The notes below the pieces were generated by a model, which saw only the letters and a program-made list of their open reading frames with translations, had not been told where the DNA came from and made no database searches. Positions 23,333 to 46,669 of a DNA stretch of 64,000 bases are shown piece after piece. Both the position numbers and the translations under genes were made by a program. The first letter of the stretch is position 1. Every line of letters begins with the position of its first letter. Source of the DNA: Candidatus Woesearchaeota archaeon (GTDB taxonomy: Archaea; Nanobdellota; Nanobdellia; Woesearchaeales; ARS49). Location: positions 34,269-98,268 of the forward strand of contig JAWCRZ010000001.1 in the NCBI GenBank assembly GCA_038868995.1, read 5' to 3'.

Positions 23333-23405
23333 TGGGGACGGCGGGATTTGAACCCGAATTAGCCGGGTTGGAGCCGGCCGTTCTACCAGGTTGAACTACG
23401 TCCCC
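23333..23405 (-). tRNA. trnW: tRNA-Trp(CCA), intronless, CCA end not encoded
   Basis: Reverse complement folds as a cloverleaf: GGGGACG/CGTCCCC acceptor, GTTC/GAAC D stem, GCCGG-CTCCAAC-CCGGC anticodon arm, TTCAAAT T loop. Confidence 0.95.
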
Positions 23406-23496: not shown

Positions 23497-24630
23497 ATGA
23501 AAAAACCTTTGGCATATTACGAAGCAATAGCCACGCTGACTGGCTGTATTATTGGCGCTGGTATTCTTGGAATTCCGTATGTTGTTGCACGTGCCGGCTT
23601 CTGGACAGGAATGCTTGTTATTGTTGGCTTGGGTCTTGTTACTTTGTTGGTGCATTTGCTGATTGGCGAGATAACATTGAGAACGAATAAGTGCATGCAG
23701 CTTGCCGGGTATGCTGAGAAATATCTTGGCTGGAAGGGCAAGTATTTGATGACCACTTCTATGGTCATAGGTATTTATGGCGCTTTGATTGCCTACACCA
23801 TTGGGATTGGGCAGAGCGTTCAGGCAATTCTCGGAGGTAATTACTGGCTTTGGGCTTTATTGTTTTATGCTATGATGGGTTGGTTGTTGTATGGAGGAAT
23901 TGGGATGCTTGCACAGTCGGAATTGTTGATGGAAACAGTTAAGTTTTTGATTTTTACTGCTATTCTGGTTATGCTGTTTTCTTCCCCTCATTTTTTTGCT
24001 GAGAGGTTTGTCGGGTTTGCCTGGGAAAGGTTATTGTTTCCGTTTGGAGTTGTTTTGTTTGCCTACATAGGCACTGCTGCTATTCCGGAAATTCGGGAGG
24101 AGATGAAAACGTGTAAATTGTTTACAAAACGCGCAATTATTATCGGTTCTTTGATTCCGATTTTTGTTTATGCTTTGTTCACAGCAGCCGCTGTTGGTGT
24201 CACTGGAATTGGCACAACTGAGGTTGCAACCATTGGGCTGGGAATGGTTATTGGTGGGTTTGGGTCTGTGCTTCTGTATGCATTTGCAATCCTTGCAATG
24301 GGAACTTCTTTTCTCGCGTTGGGATACGCATTGAAAGAAATGTATGTTGTTGATTTCCAGCTTAAGCATTTTGAGGCATGGGCGTTGACTTTAGCTGTGC
24401 CTTTGTCATTGCTTGTTGCTGGTGTGCAGTCGTTTGTGAAAACTTTAGAGGTTGCTGGGGTTTTCGCAGGTGGGATTGCAGCCATTACTGTTGTTTTTAT
24501 GCATATAAAGGCGAGGAAGCGTTCTGAGAGAAATCCGGAATTTATTGTTAGAATTAATTGGCTCGGATATGGTGCTGTTATTGCCGTTTTTGCAATCGGC
24601 ATAGTATACGAATTATTTCTTTTTCTGTGA
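23497..24630 (+). CDS. Amino-acid permease (aromatic amino acid / APC superfamily)
   Basis: GCIIGAGILGIPY; about 11 TM segments; FAY...AIPEI. Confidence 0.88.
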   Translation: MKKPLAYYEAIATLTGCIIGAGILGIPYVVARAGFWTGMLVIVGLGLVTLLVHLLIGEITLRTNKCMQLAGYAEKYLGWKGKYLMTTSMVIGIYGALIAYTIGIGQSVQAILGGNYWLWALLFYAMMGWLLYGGIGMLAQSELLMETVKFLIFTAILVMLFSSPHFFAERFVGFAWERLLFPFGVVLFAYIGTAAIPEIREEMKTCKLFTKRAIIIGSLIPIFVYALFTAAAVGVTGIGTTEVATIGLGMVIGGFGSVLLYAFAILAMGTSFLALGYALKEMYVVDFQLKHFEAWALTLAVPLSLLVAGVQSFVKTLEVAGVFAGGIAAITVVFMHIKARKRSERNPEFIVRINWLGYGAVIAVFAIGIVYELFLFL

Positions 24631-26967
24631 GCGGATGCTCCAGACAATCAAAATGAGGGCTGCAATTGCAACTGCAAGCGCAATGGTCGGCTGTATGCGT
24701 GGCGGTATCAAATGTTTCTGAACCCTGAGCAGTACTGTGTTGCTTGCTACGAATCCGCCTTTGCCGTCGTCTGCGCCAAATTTGACGCGCTCTTCGCCTG
24801 TCCAGCCTGTTTTAGGCGTCATGAAAACAGTGCTGCCGATAATGTCTATTGAAACGTGTTCTGTTTTTGACACTGTGAATGTCAGTTTGTCGCCGTCCGG
24901 GTCTTTGAAATAATTGCCGAGGTCAAGTGTGTGCACGTGGTCTTGCTGCCATACTTGCGGTGGAATGCCGTGCGCGATGGTGCCGTGCGATGGAATGAGG
25001 GCTATGGCAACGGCCATGAGCAGGCCGACGCCGATAAATCCCCAGAAAGGTTTGTCTGTTGGCAGTTGTTGCACGCGTGCATAAATGCTGTACGTGCCGT
25101 GCCGGTCTATGTCTGCTGTAATGTATATTGAGTTCTTGTCTTCGCCTGATTTTTTGAATGGAACTGTGCTCCAGGTCTGGTTTGCGTAGCGTGCCAGTCG
25201 GAAATCATCAAGCGCAACCTGTTTTCTTGAAAGCCATTTCTTTGGTATGCTGAACGTTGCCCTTATTGATGTGACATCCTCAGTGACGTTTGTCTTGATG
25301 TGCATTGTTTGGTATACTGCCGCTGATGGGGCGACACGTGCGCGTGCTTTCCTTATCTGCAGCTTGAGATTTTTGATTGATTTTTCTGGCGTGATTGTGA
25401 GCAGTGTCAATCCCTTTTTCCAGCCGTGAACGGTTAGCGCGTGTTTTTCTATTGCATTCTTCCAATGAATCCTTATAACTCGCGAGCGTGCGGCCTTTTT
25501 GGCAAGGAAAATAACGGCTAATATTCCTATGCCAAGCAGGACGTATGCGCCGTTTGGAGCGATTATCGCCCATAATGATGCAAGAAGTATAATCACAATG
25601 ATGCCAAGTATGAGCATGCCGATTTTTGCGCGTGGGGCCTTCTTCTTGCCAATTACCAGGTCTTTCCTGGCGACCATATGGTAGTCCTTTTTGATTTCTT
25701 TTTCTGCCTTGCGTTGCATTTGTTTTTTGATGCGTTCTATCTCTGCACGCTTCCGCTCTGCTGCTTTGCGCTGCAGCTCAAGTTTTTTTCTGAGAAGTTC
25801 CGCGCGCTTTTGTTCGCGTGCTTTTTTGCGCGCTTCGCGTTTTTCTCTCATTTTGCGCATTTTTTCCTTGAATGCCGGGCTTCTGATGTATTTTACAAAA
25901 TAGTATGCCCCGACGATTGCTGCTGCAATTACTACAATGCTTCCGATGAAGAGTGCAGGGTTGCGCTCAAAGAGTGTTGCCGGCTTGAGGATAATTATGA
26001 TGTCTTTGCTGTATTGGATGCCTGTCTGTTCAACAGTTGCAACAAGTGTTGCCGTGTATGTTCCTTTTCGTATTTTTTCTGTTGGCATTAGGCGCAGTGA
26101 AAGTGTTTTTTTCTGGCCTGGGTTTAATGATACTTTTTCTGGTGAAATGCTTGCCCATGGGACTCCTTCAACTGATACTGTGTATCGTGTTATCCTGTCT
26201 CCTGTGTTCTCAAGTGTTATCTCTGCTGTGCTGTCGACATAGTCGGTTCTTATCCTGTTTACTCCTTCTGCGAGAATTGGAATGTCTGTTGCCTTTATGA
26301 TAAGTTCAAGTGCGACTTCTTTTTTCTGGTTTGACTTGTCTGCTTCTACTGAAACAGTAAGCGGGAAAGTACCTGACTCTGTGCAGTCGTCTGGGGTAAC
26401 AGATACTATAATGTCTTTGCGCTCATTACCTTGGAGGACAGCTGTTTTCTCGCTGACGTGAATGTTAGGATGGCCTTTTGCCCGTATGTTGTATATTTCG
26501 GTAAAATTGAGCGGGTTTTGAAGGGATAATGTGTAACCTGCTGTTTCGCACGGCGCGATTACTGCGCTCGTTTGTGAAATTGTGAGGTTGAGGTTGTCCG
26601 GCACTGCAACGATGACTTCCTGGATGAGTTGTTTTTCAACTTCCCCGTCGCTGAAGAACAGTTCTGTTGCATATGTGCCTGTCCTTACGTCGCAGGGTAT
26701 GTTGTAATAGGTGTTTACTATAGCGCTTTGCATCGGCTGCAGCGTAAAACTTATGGCTGAGAATGTGACGTAGTTGCTTGCGTCTCCGTCAACGCTTAAT
26801 GTGAATGTTGACGCAACATCCCTTGTGTTTTGGATTGTGACGTTGCGAACTGCAGAACCGCATGGCACAACATTGACCGTCATGTCGCCGAACGCATTGA
26901 AGTCCTGAGCGCTGACGCTCAGCAGAAATAAGGAAGCAATTAGCAAAAAAATGATTGTGCGCTGCAT
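24613..26967 (-). CDS. Multi-pass surface protein: Ig-like repeats, K/R coil, PGF-pre-PGF-like domain, cadherin-like domain
   Basis: Signal peptide; repeated 'TL.N.G....Y...V.G..W' Ig-like units; FSIPKKWL...RLARY..WSTVP; YFKDPDGDKLTF; five hydrophobic segments. Confidence 0.75.
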   Translation of the reverse strand: MQRTIIFLLIASLFLLSVSAQDFNAFGDMTVNVVPCGSAVRNVTIQNTRDVASTFTLSVDGDASNYVTFSAISFTLQPMQSAIVNTYYNIPCDVRTGTYATELFFSDGEVEKQLIQEVIVAVPDNLNLTISQTSAVIAPCETAGYTLSLQNPLNFTEIYNIRAKGHPNIHVSEKTAVLQGNERKDIIVSVTPDDCTESGTFPLTVSVEADKSNQKKEVALELIIKATDIPILAEGVNRIRTDYVDSTAEITLENTGDRITRYTVSVEGVPWASISPEKVSLNPGQKKTLSLRLMPTEKIRKGTYTATLVATVEQTGIQYSKDIIIILKPATLFERNPALFIGSIVVIAAAIVGAYYFVKYIRSPAFKEKMRKMREKREARKKAREQKRAELLRKKLELQRKAAERKRAEIERIKKQMQRKAEKEIKKDYHMVARKDLVIGKKKAPRAKIGMLILGIIVIILLASLWAIIAPNGAYVLLGIGILAVIFLAKKAARSRVIRIHWKNAIEKHALTVHGWKKGLTLLTITPEKSIKNLKLQIRKARARVAPSAAVYQTMHIKTNVTEDVTSIRATFSIPKKWLSRKQVALDDFRLARYANQTWSTVPFKKSGEDKNSIYITADIDRHGTYSIYARVQQLPTDKPFWGFIGVGLLMAVAIALIPSHGTIAHGIPPQVWQQDHVHTLDLGNYFKDPDGDKLTFTVSKTEHVSIDIIGSTVFMTPKTGWTGEERVKFGADDGKGGFVASNTVLLRVQKHLIPPRIQPTIALAVAIAALILIVWSIRSQKKK

Positions 26968-29436: not shown

Positions 29437-30447
29437 TTAATCCTCGACAAATGTGTCGATGTCATTTAGGTCTTTCTTCTTTTTCTTTTCTGCAGCGGCT
29501 TTTTCTTCAGCTGCCTTCTTCTCAGCGGCAGCCCTCTTTTCTGCAGCGGCTTTTTCTTCAGCTGCCTTCTTCTCAGCAGCTGCCTTTGCTTCCGCTTCTG
29601 CCTTTGCAGAATCATCGGCTTTTGATGGTGCAGCACTTTCTTTCTTGTCTTCCTTTATTGTTGGCTCAAGGGTGTTCATCTTGTAGAGAACTGCTGCCCT
29701 GATTACTTTGCCCTTTGAAAGTCCTTCTGTGTAGCGTCTTTCTGATATGCTGTCAACAGAGTTTGAAAGCTCTTTTGTGCCGTCTTCGCGTGCCGGAAAA
29801 TACTTTGCCAGCTTTTCCGGATTGTCAATCCATGTCACACTGTCGTACAGCTCGCGCTGTTTTTCAGGAGTGTCGAGTTTTGTTTCACGCTTGTAGCCCC
29901 AGCTGTCCTTGGTTACGCGTTTTGCAAATGCCTTGTTCGCGTCAAAGCCGAGTTCTTTTGCATGTTCTGTAAGCTTTCCTTCAAGCTTCATGTGGTCGTT
30001 TTCGTAGACGCCAAACACTCTTATGCTTGATGCCGGGTTGCCTGGCTGTTCCTGCCAGACAACAATTGCATATGCTTCCAGCTGATTGCTGTTTTTCAGG
30101 TCTGCAATGTATTTTTTGCCTTCTTTTGCAATTGCTGTTGCTTCTGCATTCACTGCTTTGCTGATTATATCTTCTCCTGTAACTGCTTTTGCAAGTTCTT
30201 CTGCGCGTGCAACAGTTGTTTCAATTGTGGAAATTTCATCAGGGTTCAGAATACCGTCTTTCTTGACGTTGTTTAATTGTTCACGAAGGTAGACCGTTTT
30301 TTCTTGGTTTCCCTTGCATGCATAGTCGTCTTTTGCCGTGCAAACTTTGTCTTCAAGTTTAGAATCTTTTTTTGCAATTGGCACACAACCAGTGATACCT
30401 GCTGCGTAAATAAGTCCTGCTGCAATTGCACCATAAATTCCTTTCAT
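29437..30447 (-). CDS. Lipoprotein with C-terminal AAEKK (TolA-like) repeats
   Basis: Start MKGIYG after GGGGGG RBS; ITGC lipobox; AAAEKKAAEEKAAAEKR repeats. Confidence 0.8.
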   Translation of the reverse strand: MKGIYGAIAAGLIYAAGITGCVPIAKKDSKLEDKVCTAKDDYACKGNQEKTVYLREQLNNVKKDGILNPDEISTIETTVARAEELAKAVTGEDIISKAVNAEATAIAKEGKKYIADLKNSNQLEAYAIVVWQEQPGNPASSIRVFGVYENDHMKLEGKLTEHAKELGFDANKAFAKRVTKDSWGYKRETKLDTPEKQRELYDSVTWIDNPEKLAKYFPAREDGTKELSNSVDSISERRYTEGLSKGKVIRAAVLYKMNTLEPTIKEDKKESAAPSKADDSAKAEAEAKAAAEKKAAEEKAAAEKRAAAEKKAAEEKAAAEKKKKKDLNDIDTFVED

Positions 30448-44278: not shown

Positions 44279-44383
44279 TTACGCGATAAATACGGTCCGT
44301 CCGCTAATTATTAGGAATGCCGCGAATATCAGCATTACTGCGATTATGCTTGCAACTGCCAGTCCGACATGTAATTTTTCCAT
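44279..44383 (-). CDS. Single-TM micropeptide, 34 aa (not in ORF track)
   Basis: MEKLHVGLAVASIIAVMLIFAAFLIISGRTVFIA; TAATG overlap with the DHH stop. Confidence 0.55.
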   Translation of the reverse strand: MEKLHVGLAVASIIAVMLIFAAFLIISGRTVFIA

Positions 44384-45459
44384 TAGGTTAATCTCTGTTT
44401 GAATGTTTTTAAATATTTCTTGGGGAATCCTGCGCCTGCTGCAGGTGCGTGCCCTCCTGCGTTGCTGTTTGGTATTCCTTTCACTGCTTTTTCAAGCAGG
44501 TTGTTCACCGCTGTTTTTTTGTCGCCTCTGCGTGCGCTGACTGATATCTGGGGGCTTGTCTTATTAATAATAATGATGGTTTTGTGTGGGTATTTTAGGC
44601 CCAGTATGGTGCTGAGTGGAGAGTGCACGCGGTATTTTGAAGTTAGTTCATAAATTAGCATCTCTTCGCGTTTTTCTGCTTTTTTTTCGAACAGTTTTAA
44701 GTGCTTGTCGAGCTCTTTGTCTATTATTTTTTTGTATTTGCCGAATGGCGAGTTTAGAATGTCCTTTGGCTTTTTTGCCCTGTAGAATATGTCAAAGCAT
44801 TTTGGCACGAGTTTTGAGTTATATACCTCTGTGCTGCTGATTGTGGCTGCCACTTGTCCTATTTCCGTCTGGAAAGGGTTTTTGTTCTGCTTTATTTTGT
44901 ATTTTTTGAATACTTTTGCCAGCCAGTCCTTCCAGGGCGCTGTTGCGATGTCTGCAATGCAGGCAGCCGCTGCTATCCAGTCGAGGTCGTTTACATCTGT
45001 TACCCTATTGGCTGCGTCATACGCCAATTTGCCTGTACAGTACGTGCTTGGCTCTATCGTTGTGAAGTATTGGGGCTTGCATAGTATTGTTTTTTGGCTT
45101 TGATAGTCGGCATATAGCTTGTGATGGTCTATGACGAGTATGTCTGCTTGTTTTTCTATCTCCTTCAGTGCTGGCAAGTTGTGTTCTGCGCTGAAATCTG
45201 TTGTGATGAGCTTTGTTATTTTGTGCTGTTTGATTTTTTTGAGCATGTCTTTCGTCAGCCCGTATTGTTTTTTGTCCAGAGGTATTCTCAAATCTATTTT
45301 CCTGCCGCGCAGTCGTTCAATGCATTTTGCCATGATGACTGCTGAACACACTCCGTCCGGGTCTGTGTCGTGGATTATGCATATTTTGTCCTGCGGAGTA
45401 ATGTCTAAAAGAAATCTGTCAACGCGTTTGAGGAATGCTTCGTTTGTCATTATTTCCAC
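44383..45459 (-). CDS. DHH/DHHA1 phosphoesterase (RecJ-like)
   Basis: HDTDPDG, TTD, DHH, IAD, SARRG and GGHAPAAG motifs. Confidence 0.9.
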   Translation of the reverse strand: MEIMTNEAFLKRVDRFLLDITPQDKICIIHDTDPDGVCSAVIMAKCIERLRGRKIDLRIPLDKKQYGLTKDMLKKIKQHKITKLITTDFSAEHNLPALKEIEKQADILVIDHHKLYADYQSQKTILCKPQYFTTIEPSTYCTGKLAYDAANRVTDVNDLDWIAAAACIADIATAPWKDWLAKVFKKYKIKQNKNPFQTEIGQVAATISSTEVYNSKLVPKCFDIFYRAKKPKDILNSPFGKYKKIIDKELDKHLKLFEKKAEKREEMLIYELTSKYRVHSPLSTILGLKYPHKTIIIINKTSPQISVSARRGDKKTAVNNLLEKAVKGIPNSNAGGHAPAAGAGFPKKYLKTFKQRLT

Positions 45460-45481
45460 CCTTCACAGTAGCTCAGGTTAA

Positions 45482-45671
45482 AAATGGCGCGAGAAAAAGA
45501 TTGGGGCGCGCCATTTGGGTTTTGGGGGTGTTGCATATAGTCAAAAGGTGGCAGGTCCGCGAGGACCTGCCCTGTGAGTGATGCGGCAACTTTCGTTGCG
45601 TATCTTTCGGTTTTCTATGCCCTGAAAAGCGTAGCTTTTCTGGGCTGTGTTGTAATACGCCAGTATTACAA
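45482..45671. ncRNA. Candidate structured RNA with five consecutive hairpins
   Basis: Stems at 45482-45516, 45550-45571, 45580-45604, 45619-45645 and 45650-45671, within a divergent intergenic gap. Confidence 0.45.
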
Positions 45672-45748
45672 ATGTATCCTGGCAAAAGATTTATATATAC
45701 TTATGGTACTGAATGTACGATAGTACGGCATTGTAAAGAGGTGTTGCT

Positions 45749-46669
45749 ATGATTATTCGCAGGTTGGTGAAAGCAGGACAGGCATCGCATACTATTTCTC
45801 TTCCTAAAGAATGGCTTGATCGTCATAAGTTAAAGAAGGGCGACTTGGTTTATTTGTATGAGAAAGGTGATAAGGAGCTTATCATTACGCCTGAGAGCAA
45901 GGCAGAAGAGGGAGTTCCTCAGAAAGAAATCACTATTTCTATTGATGGAAAAGATTTGAGCACGATTCAACGCGAAATTACCAGTGCTTATATTAACAAT
46001 TACAACACTATTGTTTTGAACGGTCAGACCATTACAAAGCAGACAAAAGAAATTCGCAAAATGCTGCATGACTTTGTTGCATTGGAAGTTGCTGACCAGA
46101 CGGCAAACAGCATCATAGCAAAGGATCTTTTGAACTTAAAGGAAATCAGCATTGACAAAACCCTCCGCCGAATGGACATGCTGGTTAGAAGCATGATTCA
46201 GGATTCCATTGCAGCATTGGACAATGCCGATCTCGCCCAGAGCGTACAGGTGAGGGATTACGAAGTAAATCGCGCTTATTTCCTGTTAATGCGTTTGTTG
46301 AAGAGTTCTCTTGCCAATAAGCAGATTGCTGATTTTTTCCAGTTGTCAAACGAAAAGGTGTTAAGCTATTATTATCTGACGATTAACTTGGAGAATTTTG
46401 CTGATTGTGCAAAGCAGTTGTCGGAATACTTGGCAAAGGAGAAGAAGAAGGATAAGCTTAAGGCCGTCTTCCAGAATGTTGAGAAGAATTATCTGGAAGT
46501 TATGAAAGCTTACTTTACAAAGGATAAGAAGCTTGCTGATGGTGTTGCATTGCAGCGAGAGGACTTGCTGAAAGAAGCGAGTGAGTTGCCTGCCGGAACT
46601 GCAGAACTCTTCAAGACGATGGTTACGTTGACAAATAATGTTGCCCGTTTGGTTATGGACGAGCAGTAG
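45749..46669 (+). CDS. AbrB-PhoU phosphate-uptake regulator
   Basis: RRLVKAGQAS.TISLPKEW AbrB head followed by PhoU-like helical repeats; GAGGTG RBS. Confidence 0.88.
   Translation: MIIRRLVKAGQASHTISLPKEWLDRHKLKKGDLVYLYEKGDKELIITPESKAEEGVPQKEITISIDGKDLSTIQREITSAYINNYNTIVLNGQTITKQTKEIRKMLHDFVALEVADQTANSIIAKDLLNLKEISIDKTLRRMDMLVRSMIQDSIAALDNADLAQSVQVRDYEVNRAYFLLMRLLKSSLANKQIADFFQLSNEKVLSYYYLTINLENFADCAKQLSEYLAKEKKKDKLKAVFQNVEKNYLEVMKAYFTKDKKLADGVALQREDLLKEASELPAGTAELFKTMVTLTNNVARLVMDEQ

Follow-up and report, generated by a model that had tools for sequence, protein, structure and literature searches.

A conserved single-copy structured RNA between the genes of a RecJ-like DHH protein and a PhoU-type regulator in one DPANN family

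The DHH-PhoU spacer and its hairpins

The stretch of DNA analysed here (the window, 64,000 nucleotides) is carried by an archaeal assembly (G000) of 940 kb that is 98.6% complete. Within it, a spacer of 289 nt (45460-45748) lies between a minus-strand DHH gene and a plus-strand PhoU gene. The DHH protein matched the NCBIfam RecJ models below their cut-offs, and its nearest solved structures were P. furiosus RecJ (5x4h) and GAN (5ghr). The features of the locus, in window positions, are:

44383-45450, minus: RecJ-like DHH/DHHA1 gene (Pfam DHH and DHHA1; ORF 44383-45459, probable ATG at 45450)
45480-45484, minus: U5 run ending hairpin 1, probable 3' end of the RNA (oligo-U archaeal termination signal)
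45482-45516, minus: hairpin 1, AAAUGGCGCG, 15-nt loop CCCCAAUCUUUUUCU, CGCGCCAUUU (arms 45482-45491/45507-45516, 10 bp, 100%)
45517-45549, minus: unpaired linker ACCUUUUGACUAUAUGCAAC, then C-run ACCCCCAAAACCC (family consensus YUUUAU...ACUCA...AACCCCCCUC)
45550-45571, minus: hairpin 2, GGCAGGUCC-UCGC-GGACCUGCC (arms 45550-45558/45563-45571, 9 bp, 100%; loop GCGA on the plus strand)
45572-45585, minus: conserved unpaired motif CGCAUCACUCACAG, between hairpins 3 and 2
45586-45599, minus: hairpin 3, GCAAC-GAAA-GUUGC, with a GNRA tetraloop on the minus strand
45600-45618: decayed remnant of a second inserted hairpin, beside hairpin 4
45619-45645, minus: hairpin 4 (arms 45619-45630/45634-45645; 12 nt, 92%, 11 bp plus one mismatch)
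45650-45671, minus: hairpin 5, probable 5'-terminal stem-loop, UUGUAAUAC-UGGC-GUAUUACAA (arms 45650-45658/45663-45671, 9 bp, 100%)
45690-45699, no strand assigned: TATA box TTTATATATA (invariant flanks, 45683-45706)
45749-46669, plus: AbrB(SpoVT)-PhoU fusion regulator gene (Pfam PhoU and MazE/AbrB-type domains)

The initial annotation had described five stems of about 9-11 bp packed into roughly 190 nt, and all five were present at 45482-45671. A repeat search returned four of them as inverted repeats (45482-45516, 45550-45571, 45619-45645, and 45650-45671), and the remaining one was found at 45586-45599 as the stem GCAAC-TTTC-GTTGC. The lengths first given held for the 10-, 9-, and 9-bp stems and for the 12-nt stem at 92%, but not for the fifth stem of 5 bp, for which a longer 10-bp form, probably the one first counted, requires a bulge and is not conserved. 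The GCGA tetraloop on the plus strand (45550-45571), the GAAA tetraloop on the minus strand (45586-45599), the minus-strand T-run at the leftmost stem (45480-45484), and the AT-rich TATA region (45690-45699), all noted at the same time, were likewise found in the sequence. In a comparison with 200 dinucleotide shuffles the fold of the spacer gave z-scores of -4.1 on the plus strand and -6.8 on the minus strand, and 0 of 200 shuffles folded as well on either strand.

Scanning with Rfam 15 at gathering scores gave a tRNA at 23333-23405 as the sole match in the window. A permissive Rfam scan of 45350-45850 returned chance-level matches only (E 0.2-7), to eukaryotic miRNA and snoRNA models. The first impression that the region resembles neither tRNA nor SRP RNA nor RNase P RNA was thus borne out by the Rfam check, with no family matching in the spacer; the SRP RNA and RNase P RNA of this genome both lie elsewhere, on contig C6. 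An archaeal C/D box sRNA was rejected: the C box RUGAUGA is not conserved (AUGAUGA follows hairpin 2 only in G013, G061, and G081/L039), and there is no conserved D box CUGA. An archaeal H/ACA sRNA was also rejected, with uninterrupted stems and an ACA after hairpin 1 in a few genomes only. A search of the full-text literature on ncRNAs of DPANN archaea and Woesearchaeota found no description of the spacer RNA.

Conservation, covariation and distribution

Another 17 genomes, from the genus and the family, have the same order of DHH gene, spacer, and PhoU gene. When their spacers were aligned with MAFFT, the kept blocks were hairpin 1 (UGGCGCG...CGCGCCA), the C-run (minus sense), hairpin 2, the motifs GCAUCACUCAC and CUGGCGUAUCACAACAC, and the invariant BRE/TATA block. 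The hairpin 1 core, GGCGCG/CGCGCC, was almost invariant. The motif at 45572-45585 had an invariant CACTC with nearly invariant flanking AT and A in the spacer alignment (A2), and the hairpin 5 region carried the conserved motif CUGGCGUAUYACAACAC (45645-45663). The best-kept unpaired elements were AUCACUCA(C), UUUAU, AACCCCCC(UC), and the C-rich and U-rich loop of hairpin 1. The C-run and hairpin 1 were the most widely kept elements of all, present also in genera missed by the covariance models described below.

The hairpins differed in how far they were shared. Hairpin 3 was carried by about half of the aligned members, and in hairpin 5 the 3' arm and tail were conserved in sequence while the 5' arm was variable. 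Hairpin 4 and its decayed neighbour were seen only in the window, G003, and G004, among which hairpin 4 showed a compensatory change from G-C to A-U, so the two are a subclade-specific expansion. Other lineages had different additional hairpins at three insertion sites. Of the five hairpins, those conserved in relatives are hairpins 1-3 and, for hairpin 5, the 3' arm; hairpin 4 is a subclade insertion.

Homologues were collected, as the initial annotation had proposed, beginning with the spacers of the 17 relatives; covariation was examined with RNAalifold and with shuffles, and compensatory changes were found in the conserved hairpins. From the unfitted MAFFT alignment RNAalifold recovered both hairpin 1 and hairpin 2, and 6 of the 18 pairs showed double changes. 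In an alignment of 23 distinct sequences, which was fitted to the covariance model and so leans towards it, 89.3% of the cells paired as against 32-38% with slid partners, double changes occurred in 22 of 28 pairs, and 0 of 500 shuffles reached the observed values. By helix in this fitted alignment, 74% of the cells were paired in hairpin 5 (helix 1; double changes in 5/5 pairs), 96.6% in hairpin 3 (helix 2; 4/5 pairs), 90.9% in hairpin 2 (helix 3; 9/9 pairs), and 93.6% in hairpin 1 (helix 4), where AU/UA swaps were seen. Three outer pairs of hairpin 1 were swapped for C-G pairs in G091 (L056/L073). Distant members had a hairpin 2 that was wholly changed yet paired, for example GGGAGCCU/AGGCUCCC and GGGGCGCG/CGCGCCCC. 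A further helix, CAUCA/UGAUG around hairpin 2, paired in a few members only and without covariation, and was rejected.

Whole genomes were searched with a first covariance model (R1) and with a second one (R2). The spacer element gave one significant BLAST match in the 940-kb assembly, and again a single match with each model; it is single-copy in this genome and hence not a dispersed repeat or MITE. With R1, 29 of 77 genomes of the Woesearchaeales family each gave a single match. All of these matches adjoined the PhoU gene, and all except that in G075 lay in the DHH-PhoU spacer. Weak matches (E 1e-4 to 4e-3 per genome) fell in the same spacer and included genera in which PhoU is just 41-50% identical. 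Identity of the PhoU protein among RNA-bearing relatives was 73-94% in the closest genera and 41-62% in more distant ones. R2 extended detection to 55 of the 77, again at one match per genome; among the high-quality genomes the count was 40 of 51, and by genus it was 20 of 29. Of 150 genomes sampled elsewhere in the order, R2 matched a single one (G205, of another family), again just upstream of a DHH homologue; PhoU does not adjoin the element there. The genome tallies take in the unpublished genomes G009, G023, G081, G094, G095, G096, and G099, while the sequence arguments rest on none of them (for G081, the public record L039 has the identical sequence).

A second, divergent copy was found in G012 (L098 1578-1720; G012:C6:70477-70619; R2 33 bits), between convergent genes and with neither DHH nor PhoU adjoining. 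This assembly is 1.3 Mb with 5% contamination, and a second strain is a possible source of the extra copy. The 3' module (C-run, GGCGCG hairpin, and U-run) was also seen by eye in two genera that the models missed. G030 (L102 2594-2709, L096; G030:C11) apparently has two modules resembling hairpin 1, one directly upstream of DHH (R2 E 0.006) and one nearer PhoU, GGCGCG...CGCGCC followed by U5, recognized by eye only. In G017 (L095/L101; G017:C18) a GGDEF-like gene separates PhoU from DHH, and the RNA was not detected.

Taken together, this is a conserved single-copy structured RNA of about 190 nt, found in one DPANN family and outside the described RNA families.

Strand, ends and promoter region

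Several features favour the minus strand, that of the DHH gene, as the RNA strand. Hairpin 2 of relatives has the loops cUUCGg, cUCCGg, or cGCAAg, and hairpin 3 has cGAAAg; these are special tetraloops on the minus strand only. Outside the genus, 14 of 15 members had at least four U's within about 8 nt past hairpin 1 (four to nine U's; 13 members with at least five); inside the window's genus the U-run was often lost. The alignment, fitted on the minus strand, held 37 G-U cells against 22 A-C cells, a weak indicator. The stronger minus-strand fold and the promoter geometry point in the same direction. From these data the RNA is probably about 190 nt long, running from about 45669 to about 45480. 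A promoter and terminator scan made for bacteria, which says little about an archaeal genome, passed over hairpin 1 owing to the 15-nt loop.

The TATA box lies within a block, AAAAGATTTATATATACTTATGG, that was invariant in 18 relatives. Within the genus, about 26 bp separate the centre of the invariant box from the beginning of hairpin 5, and the PhoU side has the mirror geometry, with about 26 bp to a predicted transcription start near 45720; this symmetry suggests one bidirectional TATA element. The flank AAAAGA, upstream of the box for PhoU, fits a BRE for the PhoU gene, and CCATAAG (minus sense), on the opposite side of the box, might be the BRE of the RNA. The link to PhoU suggested by the initial annotation is thus retained as far as the common TATA region and the conserved synteny go, but no other tie to PhoU was seen. 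Separately, a direct repeat GTACG-N4-GTACG (45715-45728) straddles the predicted PhoU transcription start, and (G)TACG repeats occur at the same place in relatives (L084 1266-1285; L095; L097). The repeat is a candidate operator, perhaps for autoregulation by AbrB-PhoU.

On the other side, the ATG of the DHH gene lies 31 nt past hairpin 1 in the window and 8-40 nt past it in most family members, often without a Shine-Dalgarno site. This leaves no room for a promoter, so in those genomes the RNA forms, physically at least, the 5' part of the DHH transcript. A TATA box in the hairpin 1 loop for a leaderless DHH mRNA was considered and rejected because its spacing to the DHH ATG is not constant, ranging between about 25 and about 45 nt. 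The arrangement is different in G075 (L084; G075:C51), where the RNA and a U7 run are followed by a convergent gene for a 480-aa protein, DHH is 2.7 kb away, and a TATA-like box belonging to the RNA precedes its core by about 25 bp. In the G018 clade, a U9 run and the DHH start are separated by about 85 nt that include a TATA-like box.

The initial annotation had offered a stand-alone RNA or a leader as alternatives. On the evidence of the U-run terminator signal and of G075, G012, and the G018 clade the stand-alone form is favoured, maybe with read-through into DHH. The proposed control of an operon of glycosylation genes was not supported, since these genes lie past a 144-nt gap after the DHH gene and the DHH gene itself is RecJ-like.

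Proposed function and alternatives

We propose, with a probability of roughly 0.4, that the locus is a stand-alone minus-strand gene for a structured sRNA that ends at hairpin 1 and its U-run and acts in trans, with read-through feeding DHH. Transcription would probably begin about 26 bp from the TATA box common to the divergent PhoU gene, and would probably terminate at hairpin 1 (GGCGCG stem) and the U-run. The resulting RNA would be a row of hairpins, with the 5'-terminal hairpin 5 and an optional hairpin 4 followed by hairpins 3, 2, and 1. These hairpins would keep the conserved strands unpaired, namely AUCACUCAC, UUUAU, the C-run (AACCCCCC), and the C- and U-rich loop of hairpin 1. Through the C-rich strands, which are anti-Shine-Dalgarno-like, the RNA may pair with other transcripts and mask G-rich ribosome-binding sites. 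In our reading the best-kept unpaired strands, and likewise the motif CGCAUCACUCACAG, resemble the 3' tail of the 16S rRNA of G000 (contig C7), GGAUCACCUCCU. In compact genomes like this one, read-through of hairpin 1 would probably also supply the transcript of the RecJ-like DHH gene.

Among the features expected of a trans-acting sRNA, a conserved unpaired C-run is present, a promoter and a terminator are predicted from the sequence, and no target stands out. When three unpaired motifs were run with RNAduplex against 1031 crudely defined translation-start regions, no outlier was obtained (best -22 kcal/mol, mean -8.3, sd 3.7). Six genes of G000 with a G6 Shine-Dalgarno site (mostly UCGGGGGGA) match the C-run perfectly:

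24613-26967, minus, window: gene with a G6 Shine-Dalgarno site
29437-30447, minus, window: gene with a G6 Shine-Dalgarno site
C9:29660-30889, G000: gene with a G6 Shine-Dalgarno site
C3:2495-3457, G000: gene with a G6 Shine-Dalgarno site
C9:39252-40061, G000: gene with a G6 Shine-Dalgarno site
C10:12245-12811, G000: gene with a G6 Shine-Dalgarno site

Their products are two Ig-like/CARDB-like surface proteins, two proteins without a Pfam match, TrmB, and TBP. Throughout the family the TBP gene has a G-rich Shine-Dalgarno site, equally whether or not the RNA was detected in a genus, so a match to the C-run does not discriminate. Complementarity of GCAACACC to the ribosome-binding site of the PhoU gene, GGUGUUGC, was rejected as a target site; it occurs only here and in a close relative (G014) and is not conserved.

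The main alternative, somewhat less probable, is that the RNA is a leader or attenuator acting in cis on the RecJ-like DHH gene from its 5' side. Under this explanation the hairpins would sense a protein, a metabolite, or an RNA, and hairpin 1 with its U-run, directly before DHH, would be a conditional terminator just ahead of the start codon. The orientation beside DHH, kept across the family and in G205 of another family, is consistent with a leader, as are the short distance from hairpin 1 to the DHH ATG in most members, often lacking a Shine-Dalgarno site or room for a promoter, and the frequent loss of the U-run within the window's genus. However, no conserved alternative (anti-terminator) pairing was found in the aligned members; the one considered, between 5' UGGCG and the 3' arm of hairpin 1, gains no support from the G091 variant, in which UGGCG does not co-vary with the altered arm. 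The RNA also persists apart from DHH in G075 and as an unlinked second copy in G012, and it is without the multi-helix junction and conserved core typical of riboswitch aptamers.

We consider it unlikely that the RNA is a protein-binding RNA, either a scaffold or a decoy, with the repeated AUCAC, the C-rich motifs, and the invariant GGCGCG stem as recognition sites. Possible partners would include an Sm-like protein, a factor recognizing the 3' tail of 16S rRNA, or the products of the flanking RecJ-like and PhoU genes. The invariant stem and the conserved loop and linker motifs exceed what pairing needs, but the motifs are short. The presence of AUCACCUC in the second copy of G012, matching the 16S 3' tail exactly, also speaks for protein binding. 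A more elaborate reading, which we hold to be quite improbable, would make the RNA a decoy or mimic of the 16S 3' tail, in which AUCAC(C)UC and the C-run titrate G-rich Shine-Dalgarno sites or a tail-binding factor, the bidirectional TATA element co-controls it with the PhoU-type regulator, and read-through gates the RecJ/Cdc45-like nuclease. If it were true, such an RNA would be a lineage-specific hub through which nutrient state is coupled to replication and to translation capacity in DPANN archaea that depend on a host.

That the palindromes act as DNA, whether by forming a replication origin or by serving the divergent promoter region as operators or cruciforms, is very unlikely. Their position between divergent genes and beside a regulator gene would suit such a role, but the five palindromes differ in sequence, the stems show compensatory substitutions and tolerate G-U, the tetraloops are of RNA type, and a U-run follows hairpin 1. 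The element is also present in G205, where PhoU does not adjoin it, and in G075, where DHH does not, and a replication origin was rejected with no turn in GC skew at 45.5 kb. A small protein, from a 70-aa minus-strand ORF (45473-45685) or from a plus-strand ORF, is scarcely credible: the 70-aa ORF does span the region, but it has a TTG start and no Pfam match, its reading frame is not conserved in relatives, where tblastn matches are short pieces in shifting frames, and the indels are not multiples of three and include hairpin-sized insertions.

Base-pairing sRNAs of the kind that cover ribosome-binding sites usually expose pyrimidine-rich strands beside a terminator hairpin, and the proposed trans-acting sRNA would be built in this way. 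The RsaE/RoxS-type C-rich-motif sRNAs of Firmicutes have several unpaired C-runs in loops and linkers and a terminator hairpin with a U-tail. The spacer RNA is like them in its unpaired C-runs followed by a terminator-like hairpin with a U-tail; in contrast, they are bacterial and unrelated in sequence, and the Rfam models gave no match. Among archaea, sRNA154 and sRNA41 of Methanosarcina mazei are intergenic sRNAs with anti-RBS sequences (PMC5867862). The spacer RNA shares with these an intergenic position, a structured form of about 100-200 nt, exposed pyrimidine-rich strands, and potential RBS masking, but it has no homology to them in sequence or structure, belongs to a different phylum, and borrows its proposed mechanism by analogy. 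sRNA132 of Haloferax volcanii is a genus-restricted intergenic sRNA whose target, the pst operon, was shown by experiment (PMC6560208). Both are intergenic and lineage-restricted in a phosphate/PhoU regulatory setting; for the spacer RNA, unlike sRNA132, the tie to PhoU is the common promoter region only.

The RNA family is new but of a generally known kind, and its confinement to a single DPANN family limits the weight of the finding for now. DPANN archaea have very small genomes and have not yet been grown alone, and to our knowledge almost nothing is known of their regulatory RNAs. The RNA sits between the gene of a RecJ/Cdc45-like nuclease and that of a PhoU-type regulator. As a single-copy RNA well supported by covariation and retained in most of the family, it offers a concrete target for metatranscriptomes and a defined family for Rfam.
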